Source of the DNA: an uncultured Gammaproteobacteria bacterium
Lineage (GTDB): Bacteria > Pseudomonadota > Gammaproteobacteria > QNFN01
DNA: 34,819 nt
Assembly: GCA_965364245.1 (NCBI GenBank)
Contig: CBDTVS010000001.1
Location: 1 to 34,819, forward strand
Reading direction: 5' to 3'
Below the pieces are notes generated by a model that ran no database searches, was not told the DNA's origin, and saw nothing but the letters and a program-made list of their open reading frames with translations. Below are positions 2,753 to 34,819 of the stretch, piece by piece. Position 1 is the first letter of the stretch. Every line of letters starts with the position of its first letter. A program made the translations under genes and the position numbers.

Positions 2753-4096
2753 ATGACGGAGGACCTCGTCTCACGCGCGCGCGTCTACGGCACCCATGCC
2801 CACCGGCGCATCGACCAGCAGCGCAAGTACACCCATCAGCCCTACGAGGTGCACCTCAAGGCGGTGTCGCAACTGCTCGGCGAGGTGACCGACGACCCGG
2901 CCATGATCGCCGCGGCCTGGCTGCACGACACCGTCGAGGACACCGAGGCGACCCTCGAGGACATCCGTAGCGAGTTCGGCGACCGTGTCGCGCAGCTGGT
3001 TGGCGAGCTCACCGACGTCAGCAAGCCGAGCGACGGCAACCGCGCGGTGCGCAAGGCGATCGACCGCGCCCACCTGGCCGGCGCGTCGCCCGACGCGAAG
3101 ACGGTCAAGCTCGCCGACCTGATCGACAACTGCCGCGACATCTGCACCCACGACAAGGGGTTCTGCAGGGTCTACCTCGGCGAGATGGCTGCGCTGCTCG
3201 GCGTGCTCGGCGACGGCGACCCGGTGCTGCTCGAGCGCGCGAAGAAGACCTGGCGCAAGCACGCGGCCGCTGTTGGCCTGCCTGCCGAGCTGCTCGAGGA
3301 CGACACCGCACACGGCATGCCCGTGGCGCCGGCCCTGGCCAACCGCGTGCCGCGGCTGTTCATCGACGCGTTCACCGCCGAGGCCGTCGCCGAGCCGTTG
3401 ACCTCGTTCGATGCCGAGCGGCGCGCACTGGCCGTGGCCGAGCAGTTCGCCAGCCGCCCGCGCACCGTGATCGGCATCCGCCGCGACGGGCGCATCGCCG
3501 GCTACGCTCTGCTCGCCGACCTGGTGCAGGGCACTTGCGGCGCCCACCTGCGCACGTTCCATCCCGGCCAGCTGCTGTCGGCCAGCGCGCCGTTCGCCGA
3601 CGTCATCCAGGTGCTGACCCGCCACAAGCAGGCGTTCGTCGAGGGGTTCGGTCAGGTCGGCGGCATCATCACCCGGCGCGACATGCAGAAGCCGGTGGTG
3701 CGCATGTGGCTGTTCGGCATCATCACGCTGACCGAGATGCGCCTGACCCAGCTGGTGCGCGAGCGTTTTCCCGAGTCGACCTGGAGCGGGCTGATGACAC
3801 CATCACGCCTGACCAAGGCCCAGGCGCTGAAGGCCGAGCGCGAGCGTCTCGGTCAGCAGCTGGAGCTGATCGACTGCCTGCAGCTCGGTGACAAGGCGCG
3901 CATCGTCATCAGTGATCCGACGCTGCTCGACCAGTTCGGTTTCGAATCGCGTGGCGCGGCGAAGCAGGTGATCAAGGAGTTCGAGTCGCTGCGCAACCAC
4001 CTCGCGCACGCGCAGGACATCGTCAGTCACCACTGGGCGCAGATCGCGCGTATGGCGCGACGGCTCGAGATGCAGTACGAACCTCCCGCCACCTAA
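2753..4096 (+). CDS. Fusion protein: N-terminal RelA/SpoT-type HD hydrolase domain (small-alarmone-hydrolase-like), CBS pair, C-terminal helical domain with an Rx4H HEPN-like motif
   Basis: 447-aa ORF starting 12 nt after the yjgR-like stop. HD region: YEVHLKAVSQLL...AAWLHDTVEDT...FGDRVAQLVGELTDVSK...KLADLIDNCRDI. Two CBS-like units: VIGIRRDGRIAGYALLADLV and VGGIITRRDMQK. C-terminus: CLQLGDKARIV...FESLRNHLAHAQDI, with R at 3992-3994 and H at 4007-4009. Confidence 0.85.
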   Translation: MTEDLVSRARVYGTHAHRRIDQQRKYTHQPYEVHLKAVSQLLGEVTDDPAMIAAAWLHDTVEDTEATLEDIRSEFGDRVAQLVGELTDVSKPSDGNRAVRKAIDRAHLAGASPDAKTVKLADLIDNCRDICTHDKGFCRVYLGEMAALLGVLGDGDPVLLERAKKTWRKHAAAVGLPAELLEDDTAHGMPVAPALANRVPRLFIDAFTAEAVAEPLTSFDAERRALAVAEQFASRPRTVIGIRRDGRIAGYALLADLVQGTCGAHLRTFHPGQLLSASAPFADVIQVLTRHKQAFVEGFGQVGGIITRRDMQKPVVRMWLFGIITLTEMRLTQLVRERFPESTWSGLMTPSRLTKAQALKAERERLGQQLELIDCLQLGDKARIVISDPTLLDQFGFESRGAAKQVIKEFESLRNHLAHAQDIVSHHWAQIARMARRLEMQYEPPAT

Positions 4097-4107
4097 AGTC
4101 GACCCGG

Positions 4108-4125
4108 CCCGGCGACTGAGCCGGG
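4108..4125 (+). terminator. GC-rich hairpin (cccggc-gactga-gccggg) 12 nt after the HD-CBS gene stop; weak intrinsic-terminator candidate with no U-tract
   Basis: 6-bp stem and 6-nt loop read directly; no downstream T-run, so support is weak. Confidence 0.2.
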
Positions 4126-4164
4126 GATACGCCAGATAATCAGGAAATCCATAGACGAGGAGAG

Positions 4165-4956
4165 ATGATGCACGCCGCACCAACCACCATGACTGGATTC
4201 GCCGCCATGTTGATCTTTACGTTGCTGACCGGCGTCCCGGTCGCGGGCCTGGCAGGCGAGGGTGGCATGGCCACGCTCGAGGGCCGGGTCTTCTACCGTG
4301 AGCGCATCGCGCTGCCGCCGAACGCCGAGATCAGCGTGCAGCTCGAGGACGTGGCGCGCGCCGACGCCCCGGCCATCGTCATCGCCAAGACAAGCTTCGG
4401 TCCCAAGGGCGGGCCGCCATGGGACTTCACGCTCGCCTACGACCCGCTGCAGCGCGATGCGCGCGGTCGCTACGTGATGCGTGCACGCATCGAGGTCGAC
4501 GGCCGGCTCTGGTTCACCAACACCGATTCGATCCCGGCCTTCGACGGCGACGGGACGGTGCAGGTGCTGGTGCGTCGGGTCGGCAGCGACCGTCCGGCCG
4601 TGACGCCCGCCGCGCGTCCACTGGTCGGCACCCGCTGGGTGCTGGTCGAGATCGACGGTCAGCCCGCTGGCTCGGGCGCGGACGGGCGTCCGGCCGATTT
4701 CCAGCTCGACGAGACGGGGCAGGCGGCCGGCTTCGGCGGCTGCAACCGCTTCGGTGGCGGCGTGACCGTCGAGGACGATCGCCTGGTCTTCGGGCCGATG
4801 ATGTCGACGATGATGGCGTGCGCCGAGGCCGAGCGGGTCGAACAGGCCTACCTCGCCAAGCTGGTTGGTCCTGTGCGCTACAGCATCAGCGGCGATGACC
4901 TGGTGCTCTACGGCGGCGACGACTCGCGGCCGGTGCTGCGCTTCCGCGCCGAGTAG
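4165..4956 (+). CDS. Secreted YbaY-like domain + META (HslJ-like) domain protein
   Basis: ATG preceded by gaggagag. The N-terminus has a hydrophobic signal-like segment. LEGRVFYRERIALPPNAEISVQLEDV is typical of the YbaY/YscW-like lipoprotein domain. GTRWVLVEIDGQP...GFGGCNRFGG...MMSTMMAC is typical of the META domain. Confidence 0.85.
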   Translation: MMHAAPTTMTGFAAMLIFTLLTGVPVAGLAGEGGMATLEGRVFYRERIALPPNAEISVQLEDVARADAPAIVIAKTSFGPKGGPPWDFTLAYDPLQRDARGRYVMRARIEVDGRLWFTNTDSIPAFDGDGTVQVLVRRVGSDRPAVTPAARPLVGTRWVLVEIDGQPAGSGADGRPADFQLDETGQAAGFGGCNRFGGGVTVEDDRLVFGPMMSTMMACAEAERVEQAYLAKLVGPVRYSISGDDLVLYGGDDSRPVLRFRAE

Positions 4957-6270: not shown

Positions 6271-7064
6271 CACGCGGCGTCTCCTTGGCTCTCGACCCCG
6301 GCGAGGAAGTCGAGCAGTAGCGGGTTGAGTCGTTCGGGGCACTCGAGACCGAGCCAGTGACCGGTGCCTTCTAGCACCTCGAGGCGCGCGCCGGGCAGCG
6401 CGTCGCACAGGCGGCGCATCCCCTCAAGCGGCGCCATCGGGTCCATGTCGCCACCGACCAGCAGCGCCGGCACGTGCAGCCCCGGCAGGCGCTCGAGCAC
6501 GTCGAAGGTGGCGAGCATGCCGAGCGCGGCGCGGTAGGTCGCCTCCGGCACCGCGGCGAGCGCGGCGTACGCCAGGTCGCGGTGCGCAGGGTCGACCGGT
6601 CCGGCGAACAGCCGCGGCAGCGCGTCGTCGGCGATGTCTGCCATGGCCCGGCCGGCGTCCAGCGGCGCCAGGCGCTCGGCGACGAATCGCTGCTGCCAAC
6701 TCCCGCCCGGCGGGCCGAAGCGGCCGCTCGCCGCGAGCAGCACCAGCGAGCGCACCCGTTCGGGGTGGGCGAGGGCAAACTCCTGCGCGACCATGGCGCC
6801 CAGCGAGTGACCGACGAGGTGCGCAGCGTCGAGACCGTGCGCGTCGAGCAGGGCGGCCAGCGCGTCGCTGACCGCGGCGAAGGTCATCTCCGGCAGCGGG
6901 GCCGAGCGGCCGTAGCCGGGCATCTCCCAGGCCAACACGCGGTGGCGAGCGGAGAGGGCGTCGAGCTGCGGCCGCCACGATTCGGCGTTGCCGCCGAGGC
7001 CGTGCAGCAGCACGACCGCGGTCCCGTGGCTGCCCGCGCGCAGCGCGAACGGCACGTCGTTCAC
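6270..7064 (-). CDS. Alpha/beta-fold hydrolase
   Basis: Listed ORF 6270..7568 trimmed to the GTG at 7064. That start overlaps the upstream gene's stop (GTGA, 7064-7061). HGLGGN oxyanion motif, GHSLGA nucleophile elbow, C-terminal GTGHW. Confidence 0.9.
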   Translation of the reverse strand: MNDVPFALRAGSHGTAVVLLHGLGGNAESWRPQLDALSARHRVLAWEMPGYGRSAPLPEMTFAAVSDALAALLDAHGLDAAHLVGHSLGAMVAQEFALAHPERVRSLVLLAASGRFGPPGGSWQQRFVAERLAPLDAGRAMADIADDALPRLFAGPVDPAHRDLAYAALAAVPEATYRAALGMLATFDVLERLPGLHVPALLVGGDMDPMAPLEGMRRLCDALPGARLEVLEGTGHWLGLECPERLNPLLLDFLAGVESQGDAA

Positions 7065-8107
7065 GCGAGCTCGCCCTGCAGTTTGCCGTTGACCACGATC
7101 ATCTCGTCGTCGAGGCTGACGCTGCAGCCGCGCATCGGCAGGTCGAAGTGGCCGGCGGTGTGGCGTCCGGCGGTCTCGTTGGCGCCGGTCGAGTAGAGGA
7201 AGTTGCCGGCGAACGCGCGCAGCTCGGTGCCGTTGGTGTCGGCCTTGTCGTAGAAGGCGAGCGCCTCCCAGCGCGCGGCCGGGTTCATGCCCCAGCCGAC
7301 GTGCGACACGGCATAGGCGTCGCGATCGTCCCATGCGGCGATGTAGCTGCGGAACAGCTCGGCGTCGAGGCCGTCGCCGTCGATGCCGATGATGTAGTCG
7401 TCGAGGATCTCGAGCCGCACCGGGCTCTCGACGTAGCGCTTGAAGGTGAGGTTGACGTCGCCCGGCGCGAGCACCAGCGTGCCGCGCACGCTGCCCTGCT
7501 CGGGGAAACAGAGGCAGAGCCCGGCCGGCCAGTGCGCGACCTGCCCCGGGCGGTCGGCGTAGCCCCATGCGGCACCGAGGGGTGCCGACGAGACGTCGAT
7601 GACGAGATCGGTGCCGGCCGGCGACGTGACCTGCATGACGTTCGCGGCCTTGAGCTTGCGCAACCCGAGCTTGACCTTGTCGGTCAGCTCCGGATCGGGC
7701 AGCAGCCGTTCAAGCGCATCGGGGTGCTCGTTGCTGACCATCAGCACCCGCGCGCCGTCGGCCAGCACGCGCGGCAGCTCGGCCGCGTGCAGCAGACCCT
7801 CGAGGGTCAGGTCGACGACCAGTTCGCTCGCGGCCAGCGCCGCGATCGCCGCGTCCTGGCCGGCCAGCGCCTGGCTCGCGCCGGTGGAGCGGACCGGAAC
7901 CGGGGCGGTCTGGCGTGGGGTCGGGACTGTGACCCGGCACCAGTTGGCGCCGAGACGCTCGAGGGCGAGTTCGGCGAGCACGACGTTGAGGTCACGCGAC
8001 TGGGTCTCGGCGAGCAGCGCGACGCGCGTGCCGGGTTCGACCTTGCTCAGTTCGAACACCCTGGTGAAGGTGTCGATCCACTTGCCTTCGATGCGGTCGC
8101 TGGACAT
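7061..8107 (-). CDS. NicX-like protein (2,5-dihydroxypyridine 5,6-dioxygenase / M29 aminopeptidase-T-fold family)
   Basis: 348 aa, close to the roughly 350 aa I recall for NicX. The family call is from memory of NicX-like sequences (SHVGWGMNP, TAGHFDLPMRG near the C-terminus) and was not searched. Confidence 0.65.
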   Translation of the reverse strand: MSSDRIEGKWIDTFTRVFELSKVEPGTRVALLAETQSRDLNVVLAELALERLGANWCRVTVPTPRQTAPVPVRSTGASQALAGQDAAIAALAASELVVDLTLEGLLHAAELPRVLADGARVLMVSNEHPDALERLLPDPELTDKVKLGLRKLKAANVMQVTSPAGTDLVIDVSSAPLGAAWGYADRPGQVAHWPAGLCLCFPEQGSVRGTLVLAPGDVNLTFKRYVESPVRLEILDDYIIGIDGDGLDAELFRSYIAAWDDRDAYAVSHVGWGMNPAARWEALAFYDKADTNGTELRAFAGNFLYSTGANETAGRHTAGHFDLPMRGCSVSLDDEMIVVNGKLQGELA

Positions 8108-8202: not shown

Positions 8203-10332
8203 TCAGCGCCTCATCAACGCCTTGACGCGCATCTGCAGCTCTTCTGGTGTGAAGGGTTTATGCAGGTAGTCGCTCACCCCGTAGCTTTCGAGCAGTTCGC
8301 TGGTCTCGGTGTCGTTTTCCCTGAGTAATAACAGGAACGGCAGGCCGGCCCAGGTGAAGGACGCGCGCAGCTGTCGCAGTAACGGCCTGGTCTCTACTCC
8401 GGGCATGTCCACGTCGAGGACCAGCAGGCTGATGTTGCTCTCGCGTTGCAATACGTCGATCGCCTCATCGTGACTGGTCGCCACCTGCAGCTTCAGGCCG
8501 ATGTTATCTAGAGTCTCACGCAGGCTCTCCGCGTCGTCGGGACTCCCGGCCAGGGTAAGAACGTCTGGGAGATCGGTCTTGCGGACACGCGTATCCGTCG
8601 CCATCGGTGGTAACGAGGTGATCGCGTGATCGTGGGCGAGACACAACTCACGCCAGAAGCGCCCGCCCAGCACGCGTGACGCCTCGTCGGGCGTGGTGGC
8701 CCCGGAAACGATCCAGTCCGAGGTCAGCGCGGTCATCGACCGCCCGGTACCGGAGATCGCCTCGCGGAGTGTGGCCAAATCGGTGTGGCCGTTGACCAGC
8801 ACCTCGCGCAGTTCGTCGCCAACCTCGATGATCTCGGCTATCGGAAGCCGTCCCTGATAGCCGGTGTAGTCGCACTCCGGACAGCCGGTGGCCAATGCCC
8901 CGACCGACGCTCCGGTGATCTCTGCGAACAGCAGCGAGGCGTCATCCAGATTCTCGTTAGCTTTGCGCTTGCAGGCAGGGCAGAGCTTTCGCAGCAGACG
9001 TTGCGCACTGACGCCGATCACGCTGTCGGCAACCAGGGCCGCCGGCACGTCCAGGTCGAGAAGACGTGGGATCGCGGTCAGAGCGTCGTTGGTGTGCAGC
9101 GTTGACAGCACCAGGTGGCCGGTCAGTGCGGCCTGGACCGCGATGTCGGCCGTTTCCGCGTCGCGGATCTCGCCGACCAGGACGACGTCGGGATCCTGGC
9201 GCAGGATCGAACGCAGGGCGCTCGCGAACGTCAGACCGGCTGCAGGATTCACCTCGACCTGCGAGATGCCGACGATCTCCTGTTCCACCGGGTTTTCGAT
9301 GGTGATGATGTTGATGCCCGTCTGGTTCAGACGATCGAGGAGTGCATAGAGCGTCGTGGTCTTGCCCGAGCCGGTCGGTCCGGTAACCAGGAAGATGCCG
9401 GAGGTGTGCTGGATGATGCGCAGCATCGCGGCCAATTCGGCCGGTGGAAATTCGAGACCCTCCAGTGTCACGCCCTCACCCTGTTCATGCAGGCGTGCGA
9501 CCAGTCGTTCACCACCGCGGCAGGGCAGGGTCGAGATGCGCAATTCGATTTCGCGGCCCTGGTAGGTCGTTGCGAGTTGCCCGTCCTGCGGCTTGCGGTC
9601 GTTGCTCGGGTCCATGCCGCTAACGGCCTTGATCTGGCGTACCAGGGCATGGAACACGGCGGAGGGCAGGGTGGCGATACGCTGTAGAACCCCGTCGACC
9701 CGGCAGCGGATCACGCCGCCACCGGCGAACGGCTGCACGTGGACGTCGGAAGCGCCACGCTCGACCCCGAGCCGCAGAATCTGCCTTCCGAGCACGTCTG
9801 CTGCGTTCTCCTTATCGTCTGCCGCGGGTGCCGTCTGATCCTCCATATCCAGGATGAGCAGGCGCTCGGTCTGCTTGCGCAGCGCACGGCTGTAGTTGGC
9901 CGTAATGAAGTTGTCGATGGACACCGGCGCGGCCAGATGGGTGACGATGTTTCGCGCAGAGGCTGCCCTGAGCTGTTCCAGCGCTTCCTCGTTGAACGGG
10001 TTGCTGATGGCGACGATCAGGCTGTTGCCGTCCTCGGCGATGGGCAGAGCGTGGTACTTGCGCGCCATCGATTCCGGTACGAGGCGTGTGACGAACGGTT
10101 TCGCGCTATCCAAGTCGGCGTGGGGAATGCCGTAGTGGTTGGCGACCGCCTCCGTGAGTTCGTCGTCGGTGATCTTCAGGATGTGGGTCAGCTGGTGCCA
10201 CGCCTCCTGGGCGTTCTGGCCCAGGTGGACGCCATAGAGTGCCGTGTGCTGATCGGGAAACGTCTCCTGAACGGCGAGACGCAGCCAGCGCAGGCTCTCG
10301 CGTGATTCGGGTTGTTGATCTTCCGTGTTCAC
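8203..10332 (-). CDS. GspE/PilB-family type II secretion / type IV pilus assembly ATPase fused to a C-terminal response-regulator receiver (REC) domain
   Basis: 709 aa; the GTG start forms GTGA with the upstream stop. Motifs present:
- T2SSE_N-like region
- Walker A GPTGSGKTTT
- Walker B DPDVVLVGEIRD
- His box GHLVLSTLHTND
- Tetracysteine CPAC...CPEC
The last ~125 aa (about 8206-8580) read as REC: SPDD, LLVLDVDMPG, DYLHKPF. Confidence 0.9.
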   Translation of the reverse strand: MNTEDQQPESRESLRWLRLAVQETFPDQHTALYGVHLGQNAQEAWHQLTHILKITDDELTEAVANHYGIPHADLDSAKPFVTRLVPESMARKYHALPIAEDGNSLIVAISNPFNEEALEQLRAASARNIVTHLAAPVSIDNFITANYSRALRKQTERLLILDMEDQTAPAADDKENAADVLGRQILRLGVERGASDVHVQPFAGGGVIRCRVDGVLQRIATLPSAVFHALVRQIKAVSGMDPSNDRKPQDGQLATTYQGREIELRISTLPCRGGERLVARLHEQGEGVTLEGLEFPPAELAAMLRIIQHTSGIFLVTGPTGSGKTTTLYALLDRLNQTGINIITIENPVEQEIVGISQVEVNPAAGLTFASALRSILRQDPDVVLVGEIRDAETADIAVQAALTGHLVLSTLHTNDALTAIPRLLDLDVPAALVADSVIGVSAQRLLRKLCPACKRKANENLDDASLLFAEITGASVGALATGCPECDYTGYQGRLPIAEIIEVGDELREVLVNGHTDLATLREAISGTGRSMTALTSDWIVSGATTPDEASRVLGGRFWRELCLAHDHAITSLPPMATDTRVRKTDLPDVLTLAGSPDDAESLRETLDNIGLKLQVATSHDEAIDVLQRESNISLLVLDVDMPGVETRPLLRQLRASFTWAGLPFLLLLRENDTETSELLESYGVSDYLHKPFTPEELQMRVKALMRR

Positions 10333-10769
10333 CGCGGGAGGACTTCGACGGGGCCTGGACCTGACGCGTCGGCCTGCAGTCGGACCAGGCTGTCGTGATA
10401 GGTGGTCTCGAGGGTGTAGTCCGTGTCGCCGTGCGAATAGGTCACCCAGCCGTTGAGGAAATCGATGGGCAGGGTGTCGGGGAGTTCGCCGGTCTGCTTG
10501 CGGTACATCTCGATGTCTTCGGCCGTGTGGCTGAGGATGCCAGCGATCTGCTCGACGGTCTCGCCGCTGTCATGCGGTGCGAACCACGCGCTGAAATGAT
10601 CGCGCTCCGCGTAGACGGCCAGCACCAGCGCAACCCAGACGGTGAGGGTCAGCGGCCACCTGGACCCCACAGGCTTGGCGCTGCTCGCGAGCTTTGCGCG
10701 TCGTTCCCAGGAGTCGACCTCGTTCTGGGCCGCGGAGATGGTGCTGTTCAGGTCTTGATGTTGTGCCAT
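10329..10769 (-). CDS. Small bitopic membrane protein of unknown function (146 aa)
   Basis: ORF 10329..10865 trimmed to the ATG at 10769, which is preceded by aggaac. Single TM WPLTLTVWVALVLAVYA, with about 90 aa predicted outside. It sits 14 nt after the pilin-like gene and is coupled to the ATPase gene. I recognise no family. Confidence 0.6.
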   Translation of the reverse strand: MAQHQDLNSTISAAQNEVDSWERRAKLASSAKPVGSRWPLTLTVWVALVLAVYAERDHFSAWFAPHDSGETVEQIAGILSHTAEDIEMYRKQTGELPDTLPIDFLNGWVTYSHGDTDYTLETTYHDSLVRLQADASGPGPVEVLPR

Positions 10770-10783
10770 GACGTGTTCCTCGA

Positions 10784-11905
10784 TCAGTGTGGGTAGCGGT
10801 CGCACTGCTTGAGCAGGCCCCAGGCATGGCCGTGGGGGTGACCGGCGAGGACATGCGCTACGCAATCGTTGTACTGCTGCCGAGAGGACGCCTGGGTGCC
10901 GGTATTGCTAGCGCCAGAGCCTGAGCTGGTGCCAGCTGGCTGGGTTACGACAGGCTGTTGCACGACAGGTTGCTGCACGGGAGGCTGTATCGGTGTCTGC
11001 ACTGCTGCAACGCAGGCCAAGGGGTTGGAGGTGCTGCGTACCTCGCCGGGACCGCAAGCGTTAGCACAGACGTCGAAAGCGCTTCCGCTCGGACTGGAAC
11101 CCGCGGGGATGGTGACCTTGACCTGACCCGCTGCACAGCTCTGAGGCTGCTGTGGCTGGGGTGCTGTCTGCGATTGTTTTTCGCACGACAGTGGATTGGA
11201 AGTGCTGCGAACCTCGCCGGGGCCACAAGCGTTGGCGCATACGTCGAAAGCGCTTCCGCTGGGACTGGAACCTGCGGGAATAGTGATCTTGACCTGACCC
11301 GCTGCACAGCTCTGAGGCTGCTGTGGCTGGGGGAGTGCCTGTGGTTGCGGTTTGCTCGATACGGTGCTGGGCTGGACCGCTGCCGGGGGTTGAGTCGCGG
11401 TCGCGTGACTGGCATGCCGAGCCATGGCATCGAGCAGCGGGACGACCATGGCTTTCGGCTCGAGGACCCAGGCGTAGGTGCTGTGCGGAAGGGCATGGGC
11501 GACCGCCTTGAGGTGGCGCGACTGGGTCGCGTCTCGCGCGACCAGCATCAGATAGGGGATGTCCTTGCCATCGAACGGGCCGTAATGGGTCGAGCTCTGG
11601 ATCAGATACTCATCCAGATAGTCGAACTGGAGCAACTCCGGTCCTATGGGGAACGAGGTGAGCTCCGGAGGGATCTCGCCGACCTTGCCGGCAGAGAATT
11701 TTGGAATCGCGCCCCTGGTAGCGAGTTCGGAGTGGAAGACCGTGCGCAGCGTGTCGATCGTCGTCAGCACCTGCGCGACGCGAGCCCGGGTCTGGTAGTC
11801 GTTGTAGAGTGGCACCGCGACGGCCACGAGGATGCCGAGTACCGCAATGGTCATCATCAGTTCGACCAGCGTGAATCCTGATGCGGGTTTTCCGTTGGTG
11901 TCCAT
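10784..11905 (-). CDS. Modular type IV pilin-like protein: prepilin N-terminal methylation domain plus a long Cys-rich repeat extension
   Basis: The leader MDTNGKPASG is followed by FTLVELMMTIAVLGILVAVAVPLY, the class III signal with G-1/F+1/E+5. At 373 aa it is more than twice normal pilin size. The C-terminal half has PQ-rich linkers and two 57-aa four-Cys modules. Confidence 0.85.
   Translation of the reverse strand: MDTNGKPASGFTLVELMMTIAVLGILVAVAVPLYNDYQTRARVAQVLTTIDTLRTVFHSELATRGAIPKFSAGKVGEIPPELTSFPIGPELLQFDYLDEYLIQSSTHYGPFDGKDIPYLMLVARDATQSRHLKAVAHALPHSTYAWVLEPKAMVVPLLDAMARHASHATATQPPAAVQPSTVSSKPQPQALPQPQQPQSCAAGQVKITIPAGSSPSGSAFDVCANACGPGEVRSTSNPLSCEKQSQTAPQPQQPQSCAAGQVKVTIPAGSSPSGSAFDVCANACGPGEVRSTSNPLACVAAVQTPIQPPVQQPVVQQPVVTQPAGTSSGSGASNTGTQASSRQQYNDCVAHVLAGHPHGHAWGLLKQCDRYPH
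11021..11332. repeat. In-frame tandem duplication (period 171 bp, 57 codons) inside the pilin-like gene
   Basis: 11021-11161 aligns with 11192-11332. A perfect 45-nt core lies at 11117-11161 and 11288-11332. The encoded unit is PQPQQPQSCAAGQVK[IV]TIPAGSSPSGSAFDVCANACGPGEVRSTSNPL[SA]C, present twice. Confidence 0.9.
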
Positions 11906-11937
11906 ATCCGCGCGTCACTCCGAAGGCTGTTATTTGC

Positions 11938-11953
11938 CGCACTCTAGGGTCCA
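11938..11953 (-). promoter_or_regulatory. Sigma-54-like -24/-12 candidate (TGGACC-N5-GTGCG) upstream of the pilin-like gene
   Basis: The minus strand reads TGGACCCTAGAGTGCG, with GG-N10-GC spacing against the consensus TGGCAC-N5-TTGCW. It lies about 33 nt upstream of the ATG at 11905. Found by eye only, with two deviations from consensus. Confidence 0.25.
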
Positions 11954-12074
11954 GAGTGGGGCCTGGTGATTATTCGATATGGACTGGTTATACCTTCCTT
12001 TCGGGGCAGAGGGTATGTCCTCGCTCAATTGGCCAAGCCTGGACCATGGCCCATCTATCGGGGCCGATCTCTCA

Positions 12075-12476
12075 TCAGATTCCGTGATGCTGCGGATCTT
12101 CAGGCAGCGTCGGATCGACCGTATCGGCACCAGCATCCATACCGGCATCCAGGTTGTCGTCCGGCAAGACGTTCTCCGACTGCGCGTCAGGCGCATCGTC
12201 CAGCGCCGGGTCTGGTGGCATGACGTGCTCCACGGGTTGCACATTGGCCGGGTCCACCCCCGCGGCGACGAGGTAGTCGTCGAGCGGGGAGGGGGGTGAC
12301 TTGTCAGCCGCGTCGGATGTCCCGGTCTGGTGCGTCGTGTCCGCAAACTGCATGTAATCGGCAACGGCGTCGCCCGGGTCGGACCCAGAGTCGGTTGCAC
12401 CTGCCTGATCGTCGAACGCGGTCTCGTGCGCACCCTGGGAGTTGTCATCCACGGGTGGTGTCAGATCGCCCACGGC
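12075..12476 (-). pseudogene. Orphan, diverged copy of the giant adhesin's C-terminal 133-codon acidic tail (gene remnant or stand-alone tail ORF)
   Basis: Gapless hand alignment of 133 aa to the last 133 aa of the 17442..31907 product gives 76 identities. Conserved islands are AVGDL, DYMQFADTT, SPLxDYLVAAGV and DPQHHG[IV]-stop. An in-frame stop lies at 12531-12533, the only start is GTG at 12473, and I see no Shine-Dalgarno. Confidence 0.6.
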
Positions 12477-31983: not shown

Positions 31984-33324
31984 TCACCGTTCATGGAAGG
32001 CGGTGTCGGCGGTGATGAACACCGGTTTGAGGATGAACTGCAGCACCGACTTGCGACCAGTCGCGATGTCCACCTCGCCGGTCATGCCCGGGATCAGGCG
32101 GCGCTCTTGGCTGCCGACGTAGGACGTGGCCAGGCTGACACGGACCTTGTAGTAGGGGGCGCCGGTCTCTGGCATCTTGTAGGTGGTCGGGGAAACCTGG
32201 GTCACGATGCCCTCGACGGCACCGAAGCGGCTGTAGTCGAAGGCGTCGAATTTGACGAGGGCCTGTTGCCCCGGGCGCACGAATCCGATGTCGCGCGGCG
32301 CGACCTGGGCCTCCATCAGGATTTCGCCGTCGACTGGGACGATCTGCGCGATCGTCCCGCCGGGCGGGACCACTGCGCCCTCGCGTGTTTCGGGCAGGCT
32401 GATCACCACGCCGTCGATCGGCGCGACCAGCAGTCTACGACCCTCGCGGGCGTTGAGCGCAGTCAGGTCCGCCTCCAGCTCGCGCATCTGTTCGACGATC
32501 TGACTGCGTTCGGTGCTTGCGTCCTTGGTGAATTCGGCGCGGATGCGCTCGAGGTCGGACTCGATGGACTCGATGGCGTTGCGTAGCGATTCGGCGCGTG
32601 AGCGGGCATCGGAACGGCGCAGTTCGAGCTCGGAGACCTGTTGACGCTCCTCGCTGAGCTGCAGGCGGCTGATCAGGCCCTTGCTGACACCCTCCTCGAC
32701 GCGCTTGAGCTTCGCTCGCGCCTCGGCCAGTTCGCGGTCCAGCAGGCGCAATTCACCCTCGACACCTTTCAGCGTTGCCTGTTGCTGCTCGACCTCGTTG
32801 CGCTTTGCCGCCAGCGCCGCATCGCGAGCGGAGACCTGCGCACGATAGGTTGCGCGCGCCTCGGCCACCATGCGCGGTCGCTCGGAGAAGGGGATGAAGT
32901 CGGGTTCGCGCTCCTCCACGAACGCACCTAGCCGTTCCAGCTCAATAGCGAAGCTGGCCATACGTGTCTGCGCCTGGGCAAGATCGCGCTCGAGGTCCGA
33001 GACGACGAAGTCGGCGATGTTCTGACCGCGGGTGACGAATTCGCCATCCTCGACGTAGAGCACGCCGACGGTGCCGCCCTCTTCGGTCTGCAGGCTCTGC
33101 ACGTTGCCCGCCGGCTCGATCTCACCGCGCGCGCGTGCAAGTTCGTCGACCTGTGCCAACGCGGCCCAGACCAGGAACGTGACGACCAGCACGACGATGC
33201 CGAGTAGGGCACGGCGCAGGGCGCGGGTCTGCCCCGATTCGTCGAGCTGCGCCTCGATGCGTTCGAGTTGCCGGTCGTCTCCGGCCGTTGCGGTCACGAT
33301 GTCGGGTGCTGAGGCTTCGTTCAT
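31984..33324 (-). CDS. HlyD-family type I secretion membrane fusion (periplasmic adaptor) protein
   Basis: ORF 31984..33429 trimmed to the ATG at 33324 (MNEASAPD...). There is one N-terminal TM (LLGIVVLVVTFLVWAALA), a long coiled-coil region, and the C-terminal motif LIPGMTGEVDIATGRKSVLQFILKPV typical of HlyD adaptors. Confidence 0.9.
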   Translation of the reverse strand: MNEASAPDIVTATAGDDRQLERIEAQLDESGQTRALRRALLGIVVLVVTFLVWAALAQVDELARARGEIEPAGNVQSLQTEEGGTVGVLYVEDGEFVTRGQNIADFVVSDLERDLAQAQTRMASFAIELERLGAFVEEREPDFIPFSERPRMVAEARATYRAQVSARDAALAAKRNEVEQQQATLKGVEGELRLLDRELAEARAKLKRVEEGVSKGLISRLQLSEERQQVSELELRRSDARSRAESLRNAIESIESDLERIRAEFTKDASTERSQIVEQMRELEADLTALNAREGRRLLVAPIDGVVISLPETREGAVVPPGGTIAQIVPVDGEILMEAQVAPRDIGFVRPGQQALVKFDAFDYSRFGAVEGIVTQVSPTTYKMPETGAPYYKVRVSLATSYVGSQERRLIPGMTGEVDIATGRKSVLQFILKPVFITADTAFHER

Positions 33325-33340
33325 TGAAGGTACTCGTCTA

Positions 33341-34819
33341 TCAGGCCTGCAGTTGGTTGTCGGGGGGTGCGGCAACCGGTCCGGCATGAACCAGATTGCC
33401 CTCGTTGAGCACCACGACCTGGTCGGCACGCTGGATTAGATCGGTGCGGTGCGTGGCGAGGATCACGGTGCTTTTGCCACGCAACCCGGCGAGGAGTTCG
33501 AGGAACGCTGTCTCGAGCACCGGATCACGATCGGCGAGTGGGTCGTCGAGGAGCAGCAGACCCGGTTCGTCGACCAGCGCCGCCGCCATGTTGACCATGA
33601 AGCGGGCTCGCCGATTAGCCCGGTCGTGGCGCCAGGGTTCGAGCCGCGTGGCCAGTGCCGCCTCGGCGCTGTCGGCGCCGATCAGCTGCCACCAGCCAAA
33701 GCCGCCGACTCGAGCCAATGCGAGCACGATCGCATCGTCGCTGGCGTTCGGGCGGCGCAGGCGGACGAACTCGCAGACAGTCAGCGGCAATCCGTGGTCG
33801 ATCTGTGGCACGTAGCCAAGCCAGGCGCGGTAGTCCGCTGGATCGAACTGGCGGATGTCGCGACCACCGACCAGCACGCGTCCATTCTGGGGCTGGCGCA
33901 CCGAAGCGAGCAGTTCGAGCAGCGTGCTCTTGCCCGCGCCATTGGGCCCGATGACGGCCACGGTCTGACCGCACTCGATCTCAAAGCTGACCCCGTTGAC
34001 CGCCGGCTCACGCTCGGCGCTGTGACGGTAGAACAGGCGGTCAGCGGTCAGCTTGGCCTGCAGAGCTTCGACCGGAGAGGTGGCAAGCGGATTCTGGTGC
34101 TCGCCCTGGGTCGCCATCAATCGCTCGAACTGGCGGCGTGAGGCGACGACCTGACGCGTGCGTGCGTGCGCTGCGAACAGTTGTTGGGCTGGCGTGGTGA
34201 CGCGCCAGATAAGCATCATCGTTGCGATCAGCCCGCCGGTAGTCATGCCACCCTCGAGTACCAATGCGATGCCCACCGCCATGGTGCAGAGCACCGTGAG
34301 CATTGCCAGTGACTGGCCGAGCGTCTGCACGAGGCCATTAGCCAGCGCATGATCCCGGTTGGCCTTGGCTGACTGCACGACAAGGTTGGCGAGGTGCTGG
34401 CGGAGCAGTGCCGAACCGCGCACGCCGCGCAGGCTGCGCAGGCGCAGCGTCAGTGCGGAGGTTGTGTCATTGAGCTCGCGTGAGACCCGTCCTGCCTTGG
34501 CCGAGCGCGTCTCGACGAGCCGTGAGGTCGGCAGCGACACGACGTAGAAGAGCAGCAAAGCGGTCAGTGGCACCACGGCGATCCAACCGCCGAGCAGCGC
34601 GATGACCAGCAGGAAAATCAGCACGAAGGGGTAATCGAGATTGACGATCCCGGCCGACCCACCGAACAGCTGGCGCACACCCTCAGCGCCGCGCAGCCGG
34701 CTGAGATTGGCGTCGACTCCACTGCGCAGGGTGCTCTCAAGCGGCAGCCGAAGTGTCTTGATGATGGCGTTGCGCGTGATGTGTGAGCCGGCCCAAGCTG
34801 ACAGATCGGCCAGCGCGCG
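33341..34819 (-). CDS. Type I secretion ABC transporter permease/ATPase (partial; the N-terminus lies beyond the window) with a non-canonical nucleotide-binding domain
   Basis: The track ORF starts at the GTG at 34678. My translation shows the frame stays open to the window edge (RALADLSAWAGSHITRNAIIKTLRLPLESTLRSGVDANLSRLRGAEGV-RQLFGG...). The TM-domain half is followed by an NBD with Walker A GPNGAGKST, Q-loop GYVPQ, Walker B LLLLDD and H-loop ATHR. No LSGGQ signature is present. Confidence 0.9.
   Translation of the reverse strand, partial: RALADLSAWAGSHITRNAIIKTLRLPLESTLRSGVDANLSRLRGAEGVRQLFGGSAGIVNLDYPFVLIFLLVIALLGGWIAVVPLTALLLFYVVSLPTSRLVETRSAKAGRVSRELNDTTSALTLRLRSLRGVRGSALLRQHLANLVVQSAKANRDHALANGLVQTLGQSLAMLTVLCTMAVGIALVLEGGMTTGGLIATMMLIWRVTTPAQQLFAAHARTRQVVASRRQFERLMATQGEHQNPLATSPVEALQAKLTADRLFYRHSAEREPAVNGVSFEIECGQTVAVIGPNGAGKSTLLELLASVRQPQNGRVLVGGRDIRQFDPADYRAWLGYVPQIDHGLPLTVCEFVRLRRPNASDDAIVLALARVGGFGWWQLIGADSAEAALATRLEPWRHDRANRRARFMVNMAAALVDEPGLLLLDDPLADRDPVLETAFLELLAGLRGKSTVILATHRTDLIQRADQVVVLNEGNLVHAGPVAAPPDNQLQA

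Follow-up and report, generated by a model that had tools for sequence, protein, structure and literature searches.

A conserved pilin, bitopic protein and ATPase module that contains no platform gene and may borrow a resident type IVa pilus machine

Can a pilin and a motor ATPase of the assembly type form a unit of their own when the other parts of a type IV filament machine are encoded elsewhere? A pilin, a prepilin peptidase, an extension ATPase and a platform protein occur in each of the type IV filament systems described (PMC10191384). The question is raised by a three-gene locus on contig C1 of an uncultured gammaproteobacterium. The entire contig, 34.8 kb long, is the window analysed here; it belongs to a metagenome-assembled genome (MAG; G000) of 2.09 Mb in 396 contigs that is 75.5% complete. 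Head to tail on the minus strand lie the genes for a modular type IV pilin of 373 residues (10784-11905; open reading frame (ORF) call with N_methyl and TIGR02532 matches), a bitopic small protein of 146 residues (10329-10769; an ATG inside a 178-residue ORF, with the ribosome-binding site GAGGAA) and an assembly-type ATPase of the PilB/GspE superfamily with 709 residues and a GTG start (8203-10332; T2SSE, 363 bits). The original prediction, which was made from the sequence alone, had described the tight packing of these genes, and all of it was found again: a 14-nt gap (10770-10783) from the pilin stop to the ATG of the small gene, a 4-nt overlap (10329-10332) of the small-gene stop with the ATPase start, and the families of the ORFs. 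The trio is a conserved module, not described before. Its ATPase belongs to a clade of its own, and platform, peptidase and secretin genes are absent from the module yet present elsewhere in the carrier genomes tested. The explanation that we favour, and to which we give about an even chance of being right, is an accessory module of the type IV filament superfamily that borrows the resident type IVa pilus base and peptidase to install its modular pilin.

The first line of evidence is the conservation of the trio as a unit. Among five genomes of the genus to which this MAG belongs, three encode the small protein, and so does one genome of a sister genus. In tblastn searches, four assemblies (G002, G003, G004 and G006) carry the trio in the same order and spacing, with identities of 68-78% for the ATPase, 54-70% for the small protein and 45-65% for the pilin. 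A search for related loci with an alignment of close members of the small protein came back to these four MAGs alone. On two metagenome contigs with flanks of up to 10 kb, the trio is placed between LysE and either a NicX-like or an HD_4 gene, with housekeeping genes around it. The ratio of nonsynonymous to synonymous substitution rates (dN/dS), determined against two relatives, is 0.15-0.39 with dS near 1 for all three genes, indicating purifying selection. The original prediction had asked whether the trio might not be conserved or might be a standard operon split in two; neither proved to be the case, and the unit is kept in six related assemblies. As the trio is missing from the genomes G005 (100% complete) and G001 (70% complete), it is accessory already at the level of the genus.

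The same partners are found together at much greater distance. A scan of 400 genomes of the class with a divergent alignment of the small protein, in which 9 candidates were scored per genome so that the carrier count is a floor, revealed one distant carrier, G068, the sole genus outside the home family. Eleven distant contexts were read, one of which (L037) is a contig of 774 bp and too short for neighbours; in all ten that reach neighbours, the small gene is found beside a large N_methyl pilin gene, an MshEN-T2SSE ATPase gene, or both. The arrangement differs from locus to locus. G068 (99% complete, 51% GC; L036 = G068:C10) has a pilin of 252 residues, a small protein of 153, an ATPase of 564 and a GGDEF protein, in this order. 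The short contig L038 has the small gene followed by a pilin of 432 residues, and L039 and L040 have an ATPase of 700 residues, the small protein, a pilin of 373, a DsbC-like protein and a second pilin of 378. L041 encodes the small protein, a 180-residue protein, a 144-residue paralogue, an ATPase of 579 residues and a pilin of 544; L069 encodes the small protein, a 178-residue protein, a 155-residue paralogue, an ATPase of 577 residues and a pilin of 621; and L042 comprises the small protein, a pilin of 388 residues, a long paralogue of 300 residues and the ATPase. Orientation changes as well: in L067 the gene for a 713-residue ATPase with a receiver tail is divergent from those for the small protein and a pilin of 261 residues, and in L068 the genes for the small protein and a 385-residue pilin are convergent with that of a 698-residue ATPase. 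Module DNA spans 50 to 70% GC; for one member, the annotation gives a betaproteobacterial MAG as the source. That the partners stay together while order and orientation change argues for a functional module.

The ATPase provides the second line of evidence. Pfam recognizes in it an MshEN-type N domain, a T2SSE core and a Response_reg tail, all encoded on the minus strand. Residues 67-151 (9880-10134) form the N1 domain of MshEN/T2SSE_N type (PF05157, 62.6 bits, positions 1-88 of the 90 in the profile); residues 175-552 (8677-9810) form the T2SSE core (PF00437, 363 bits, E=1.6e-108), with identical coordinates in a whole-genome profile search; and residues 601-703 (8224-8532) form an atypical, receiver (REC)-like domain (PF00072, 44.5 bits against a cut-off of 30.2). 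The protein preserves an intact Walker A motif, Asp box, Walker B motif, His box and CxxC...CxxC motif, all of which are also found in the PilB, TfpB and GspE proteins of the same genome. The other module-linked ATPases likewise keep their catalytic and zinc-finger motifs. Compared with the NCBIfam equivalog profiles, the protein stays under each cut-off, scoring 439 of the required 630 for GspE (TIGR02533), 417 of 676 for PilB (TIGR02538) and 386 of 850 for TfpB (NF053534); distant module ATPases score in the same sub-cut-off range. In a maximum-likelihood tree of 26 ATPases from this genome, G004, G005, G068 and the module loci, all of the module-linked ATPases (11 of 11) group in one clade with support of 100/99, and PilB, TfpB, GspE and the MshE-like proteins each form separate clades. 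Long branches meet in this tree and its root position is unreliable, but the module clade is well supported regardless. The module ATPases are a distinct clade apart from PilB, TfpB, GspE and MshE. The label GspE-REC, under which the original prediction had filed the protein, is not supported in its canonical sense, as the ATPase is neither GspE nor PilB by the NCBIfam cut-offs and its receiver lacks two conserved catalytic positions.

Both ends of the ATPase deserve a closer look. Residues 1-66 (10135-10332, minus strand) form a clade-specific N-terminal segment with the motif LRWLRxAVxxxFPD...W.QLT, which recurs in the distant module ATPases of L039, L042, L067 and L068. This segment occupies the place of the helices that bind cyclic di-GMP (c-di-GMP) in MshE and PilB. 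A regular expression for the tandem c-di-GMP motif RLGxx(L/V/I)(L/V/I)xxG(L/V/I)(L/V/I)xxxxL, which is a coarse test, found it in none of the module ATPases; MshE-like ATPases from G068 and G005 do match the same expression. In G068, a gene for a membrane-bound GGDEF diguanylate cyclase directly follows that of the tail-less module ATPase (L036, 3135-4391), though this ATPase is without the MshE-type c-di-GMP motif. At the other end, the receiver-like domain matches 144 solved receivers (best E=1.5e-10) and retains, in all close relatives, the phospho-acceptor Asp (LLVLD; Asp57) and the conserved Lys (HKPF; Lys109). Position 87, the Thr/Ser switch, is occupied by Leu; at the Mg-binding acidic pair this protein has Ala-Gly, and its relatives vary. 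The numbering is that of CheY. Alignments with solved receivers from the PDB give the same result for Asp57, for position 87 and for Lys109, and in them the acidic pair falls on non-acidic residues (G-S). Similarly degenerate REC-like tails are found on the ATPases of L039, L067 and L068, but not on those of G068, L041 and L069. No kinase gene is linked to the module. Judged by these residues, the receiver is atypical and perhaps independent of phosphorylation. In the literature we found no description of the module or of a GspE/PilB-REC fusion.

The third line of evidence is what the module leaves out. The window contains no match to T2SSF (PF00482), Peptidase_A24 (PF01478) or Secretin, and no T2SSF, Peptidase_A24 or Secretin gene was called in the related and distant module loci, about 15 in number, five of which (L039, L040, L067, L068 and L069) have 10-kb flanks on both sides. 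A multi-pass membrane protein is likewise encoded in none of the modules. The original prediction had noted the lack of a platform, peptidase or secretin gene near the cluster, and the whole-genome search bears this out by placing all such matches on other contigs. In this MAG, PilB and PilC are encoded on C357 and GspD, GspE and GspF of the type II secretion system (T2SS) on C148; Tad-type platform domains are found on C7. C346 carries a single gene for an A24 prepilin peptidase and C381 one for a second secretin, and PilT/U-type ATPases are encoded on C76 and C353. A genuine TfpB is encoded on C107 (~2822-4765, minus strand), with 892 bits against the NF053534 cut-off of 850. The TfpB gene adjoins proS with no pilus genes near, and has orthologues in G004, G005 and G068. 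With TfpB included, such small genomes contain four assembly-type ATPases (PilB, TfpB, GspE and that of the module) for two PilC/GspF-type platforms. In each of the carrier genomes tested, two or more complete platform genes lie on other contigs, and PilB/PilC are encoded elsewhere. With PilB/PilC, GspD/E/F, the peptidase, the second secretin, PilT/U and TfpB all on other contigs, the borrowing of machinery encoded elsewhere, one of the alternatives in the original prediction, is feasible.

What might connect the ATPase with such machinery is the small protein, which represents a new protein family. A word-indexed search revealed 18 close clusters, all from uncultured Gammaproteobacteria, and an exhaustive profile search of 1.84 billion protein representatives extended the family to 57 clusters at E<1e-3, nearly all of 130-160 residues and aligned over most of their length. 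The 57 clusters share a layout of an amphipathic helix (DL..LI.AA), one transmembrane (TM) helix and a periplasmic segment, IE.YR...G.LPD.LP...V.Y....Y.L. In the window's protein, the conserved cytoplasmic amphipathic helix reads DLNSxISAAQxEVDxWExRA, the TM helix spans residues ~38-57 and the periplasmic domain carries the motif YRxxxGxLPDxLP. Modelling of the full-length protein by AlphaFold2 (AF2) with the family alignment (predicted local distance difference test (pLDDT) score 76) places helices at residues 3-29, 38-54 (the hydrophobic segment) and 69-93, and four strands within 109-145. The periplasmic domain (residues 60-146; 10332-10592, minus strand), modelled alone with a 13-row alignment, is predicted as a long helix on a four-stranded beta meander (pLDDT 84.5; predicted template modelling (pTM) score 0.73).

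Neither sequence nor predicted fold ties this protein to a known family. The small protein and its family have no Pfam, NCBIfam, PADLOC or PDB-sequence match, and a Pfam scan of 24 family members produced a lone stray match to PAP_PilO (E=0.15) in one of them. Foldseek searches of the PDB with the full-length and periplasmic models gave best E-values of ~0.6-0.7. The original suggestion of a PilO/GspM-like fold was not borne out, given that the periplasmic model, at its pLDDT of 84.5, has no PDB match better than E=0.67. A PilN/PilO/GspM-type identity is not supported, as no pilus or T2SS protein is among the 50 best Foldseek matches listed. A pilin-like fold, suggested by the YRxxxGxLP motif and the helix-plus-four-strand topology, was also considered and is not supported either: hhalign against the module pilin profile returned a probability of 0.3%. 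Pilins are not among the 50 best Foldseek matches listed, and the TM segment has no cleavage signature. The most economical role for the small protein would be that of a membrane adaptor of the ATPase, given where it is encoded, the conserved helix on its cytoplasmic side, the way it co-varies with the ATPase clade, and the occurrence of paired paralogues in some modules. In this second variant of the module, the small protein has a paralogue of 144-155 residues or a 300-residue form with a long cytoplasmic extension (L041, 711-1680; L069, 10456-11452; L042, 3481-4383). L041 and L069 also encode a third protein of ~180 residues with an N-terminal TM helix and no family match.

The pilin combines a conserved front with an exchangeable rear. 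Its N-terminus reads MDTNGKPASG/FTLVELMM, that is, a 10-residue leader and the cleavage signature G/FTLVE, and shows all features of a class III signal peptide (G-1, hydrophobic +1, E+5 and a hydrophobic helix). There follow a pilin domain of ~165 residues, a Pro/Gln-rich linker, two four-Cys modules and a His-rich tail (HPHGHAWGLLKQCDRYPH). The ~165-residue domain is common to all module pilins, in which the canonical signature for cleavage and polymerization (G-1, F+1, E/D+5) is kept. In its N-terminal helix, the profile of this domain matches PAK pilin, PilA and gonococcal pilin, all major pilins of type IVa, at ~1e-15, far better than it does pseudopilins (GspG, 3e-4), and the N-terminal helix is near that of the canonical PilA of the sister genome G005. 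On these sequence comparisons, we assign the N-terminal helix of the module pilins to the type IVa major-pilin class. The canonical PilA of G005, a non-carrier, is encoded on a 1.5-kb contig of its own (L076 = G005:C300).

The C-terminal part, in contrast, varies widely. In the window, a tandem duplication within the pilin gene (11025-11332, minus strand; 171 nt or 57 codons, 1.8 copies) has doubled the four-Cys module; Tandem Repeats Finder reports it with period 171, 91% matches and a score of 532. The four-Cys modules here are disulfide-rich. Relatives retain the pilin domain and the tail, and the Cys modules or other C-terminal domains vary: close relatives have none, one or two Cys modules, and the wider family from 0 to ~8. 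The pilins of L039 and L041 contain many four-Cys repeats, with ~8 Cys-rich repeats in the 544-residue protein of L041 and a weak EGF_3 match in it. L038 has a pentraxin-like domain (weak match), and the 621-residue pilin of L069 combines cadherin/Big_9 domains with a region resembling the pentraxin-like part of L038. In L068 the C-terminal region is again different and has no match to the families tested. The variable C-terminal head is probably adhesive. Between two Cys-rich modular pilins of L039, with 16 and 29 Cys residues, lies a gene for a DsbC-like thiol-disulfide isomerase (11565-12296), which has the same coordinates in L040; in both loci this pair of pilins and the DsbC-like gene are downstream of the module ATPase and small protein. 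The DsbC-like gene in L039 fits an extracytoplasmic oxidative folding of the pilins. Members of the close family share the His-rich, Cys-containing tail in the form HPHGH...C.RYPH, and this Cys-flanked tail might bind metal. In the window the tail occupies 10784-10880; a related tail, HPWQHQNQNHPGQGHGNH, is found in G068 (L036), and the pilins of L041 and L067 have the form C.V/IRYPHGN...C.

How could these three proteins work together? We propose that the housekeeping prepilin peptidase would cleave the prepilin and that the small protein would hold the ATPase at the membrane, its cytoplasmic helix binding the clade-specific N-terminus of the ATPase. The ATPase would then act on the resident type IVa base (the PilC platform and PilMNOPQ), where it would prime or extend pili; in these the modular pilin would probably be a subunit of low abundance or one placed at the tip. 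Where a receiver-like tail is present, it would act as a gate on the motor, and a classical phospho-switch is probably not involved. Specificity for their own machine or platform is reported as the usual case for extension ATPases, with the exception of Acinetobacter baylyi, in which PilB and TfpB share one machine (PMC11656802). The proposal thus has a parallel in TfpB, a second extension motor on the PilB machine of that species, and another in the modular minor pilins with which Streptococcus sanguinis arms its pili.

Several points weigh against this proposal. Since extension ATPases are reported to be platform-specific (PMC11656802), the docking of so deeply diverged an ATPase on the resident PilC cannot be taken for granted, and the dependence on PilC, PilD or PilQ, whether physical or genetic, is something that we infer. 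Two members of the genus that do not carry the module also have platforms. As type IVa pilus systems are common in Proteobacteria and non-carriers have platforms too, the co-occurrence of the module with a type IVa pilus is uninformative. The carriers in this comparison are MAGs without exception, and in two of them, G004 (L082 = G004:C49) and G068 (L083 = G068:C11), the contig ends within ~1.3 kb past pilB, where pilA usually lies; these carriers may encode a major pilin of another kind, or the modular pilin may serve as their main type IVa pilin. Nor does the predicted fold of the small protein point to a partner. Finally, the variants with two paralogues and a third single-TM protein look like a more self-contained inner-membrane assembly.

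This last point leads to the first alternative, an autonomous minimal filament machine in which an oligomer of the bitopic protein, together with its paralogue in some variants, replaces PilC/GspF and couples the ATPase to the pilin. Such a machine would build a short fibre or a periplasmic pseudopilus and borrow at most the peptidase. A platform gene is found in none of the about 15 loci, five of which can be read for 10 kb to either side; the ATPase clade stays linked to the small-protein family even where gene order changes; the second paralogue and third single-TM protein of L041 and L069 recall the PilN/PilO or GspL/GspM pairs; and the reported specificity of ATPases for their platforms opposes easy borrowing. 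Against autonomy, a platform is among the four proteins of every type IV filament system described (PMC10191384), no module contains a polytopic membrane protein that might take its place, and platforms are encoded elsewhere in every carrier genome tested. Moreover, pilins with such bulky C-terminal heads would fit more easily at the tip or as a minor subunit than in a homopolymer. On balance, we consider a self-sufficient machine unlikely; were it true, the four-protein rule would be broken and the minimal machine would have to be redefined.

A second alternative holds that no filament is built at all. The ATPase and its anchor could serve as a regulated brake, competitor or checkpoint on the base of the type IVa pilus or T2SS, or they could pull out or display the membrane-anchored pilin, unpolymerized, as a periplasmic or surface sensor or adhesin, with the signal coming from the receiver-like tail or, in G068, from the diguanylate cyclase. 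A receiver-like tail in one ATPase subclade, the GGDEF gene right after the ATPase in G068, and the single pilin gene per module in most loci, with no set of minor pilins, are all compatible with such a role. However, the ATPase has kept all catalytic motifs and the tetracysteine motif, as have PilB, TfpB and GspE of the same genome, and the pilin has kept its signature for cleavage and polymerization along with a helix of the type IVa class, which would be costly if the protein were never polymerized. We judge a purely regulatory or display role to be improbable, and at best on a par with an autonomous machine.

The original prediction had further suggested a functional link between the trio and the giant adhesin of a type I secretion system (T1SS) that neighbours it in the window; the trio might, for example, anchor, process or co-regulate the adhesin. 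Both would be related to adhesion, and the two are close to each other in this one genome only. Synteny speaks against a link: in six related assemblies LysE and housekeeping genes stand beside the pilin instead, and no giant adhesin or T1SS gene adjoins the module in these assemblies or in the ten distant loci. Upstream of the pilin, relatives have LysE and genes for a lipoprotein, GlcD, CysK and a DEAD-box helicase. In the present genome, contig C28 (5036-10427) holds CysK, GlcD, the lipoprotein gene and LysE, followed up to the contig end by AraC-type and T1SS ATP-binding cassette (ABC)-type genes, and the window itself ends with HlyD (31984-33429) and a truncated ABC transporter gene (33341-34819). 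C28 and C1 are probably adjacent. With this gene content at the end of C28 and at that of the window, the adhesin/T1SS island appears as an insertion between LysE and the pilin that is specific to this genome. A lower-GC insert also separates the adhesin from the trio. A functional tie to the adhesin is therefore very improbable. Even less credible is a pilin and ATPase split by rearrangement from an ordinary T2SS or type IV pilus operon with the 146-residue gene as filler: the domain families are the same as in such operons, but PilB, TfpB and GspE are encoded separately in this genome, the module ATPase lies outside their clades and under their cut-offs, the trio holds together from genus to genus, and purifying selection acts on the small gene. 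An anti-phage system was considered as well and rejected, PADLOC having returned nothing beyond a 21-bit P-loop match.

Other features of the surroundings can be noted briefly. Between 8001 and 18000 of the window, GC content is 0.62-0.65 over the trio compared with 0.69-0.74 in the housekeeping genes to the left, and 0.53-0.58 in the cyclase/sulfatase insert. The lower GC of the trio is not a mark of recent arrival, because its site is conserved in the family. A scan for promoters and terminators gave signal at chance level only. The gene downstream of the ATPase (7061-8107, minus strand) had no Pfam match in the scan; its orthologue on L026, which is 87% identical, is recorded with PF26233 (NicX). 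A NicX-type gene follows the trio in G002 and L026, and an HD_4 gene (like that at 2753-4096 of the window) takes this place in G003 and L025.

Comparison with known systems helps to delimit what is new. Closest to the proposed mode of action is TfpB of A. baylyi, which serves the PilB/PilC machine of the cell and has a proposed part in priming assembly (reviewed in PMC11656802). Like the module ATPase, TfpB is an assembly-type ATPase encoded away from platform genes. Unlike TfpB, however, the module ATPase scores 386 bits instead of the required 850, falls in another clade and often has a receiver-like tail; furthermore, the genuine TfpB on C107 has no bitopic or pilin neighbours, whereas the module ATPase is always found with its own bitopic protein and pilin. 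The pilin, in turn, resembles the modular pilins PilB and PilC of Streptococcus sanguinis (PMC8179133, PMC9934059; for the concept, PMC10191384), in which an unrelated functional domain is grafted C-terminal to a pilin module. Among module pilins, the heads are four-Cys or EGF-like repeats, cadherin/Big_9, pentraxin/LamG-like or other beta-rich domains. In S. sanguinis, the genes for these pilins belong to a complete pilus locus whose single motor assembles them, whereas the module pilin comes with a private ATPase and adaptor and no platform.

The small protein invites comparison with the membrane anchors of motor ATPases, namely GspL/GspM in the T2SS, PilM/PilN/PilO in type IVa and TcpR-TcpT in type IVb systems (table in PMC10191384). 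These too are small bitopic inner-membrane proteins encoded beside the motor ATPase, and the paired paralogues of some module variants resemble them further. The known anchors are thought to recruit or stabilize the ATPase via a cytoplasmic segment and to reach the pilin side via a periplasmic domain. They always accompany a platform, however, and the small protein has no sequence or fold similarity to any of them. PilN, PilO and GspM have a ferredoxin-like fold, whereas the periplasmic domain of the small protein is predicted as a helix on a four-stranded meander. In Escherichia coli, the ppdD-hofB-hofC operon encodes a pilin, an ATPase and the polytopic platform HofC, with the remaining machine parts elsewhere on the chromosome. 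Although this is also a three-gene operon with a pilin and an ATPase and the other parts elsewhere, the third gene of the module encodes a 146-residue single-TM protein in place of a platform, and its ATPase belongs to another clade. Lastly, the c-di-GMP-binding MshE/MshEN ATPases (PMC4624772; Wang et al. 2016, cited in PMC11656802) share with the module ATPases an MshEN-type N domain before the T2SSE core. The regular expression found their paired 24-residue c-di-GMP motifs in none of the module ATPases, which have the clade-specific 66-residue segment instead.

Taken together, a pilin, a deep-branching ATPase and a new bitopic protein have stayed with one another through changes in order, orientation and base composition, and a platform has never been included. 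If the module does plug into the resident type IVa pilus, it would constitute a portable kit that arms pili with exchangeable heads, be they disulfide-rich, cadherin-like or lectin-like. Borrowing would then make the module the second natural case, after TfpB, of several extension motors on one machine, and the candidate adaptor could explain the choice of motor. In either case, the trio provides a new protein family with a confident domain model and a distinct clade of assembly-type ATPases.

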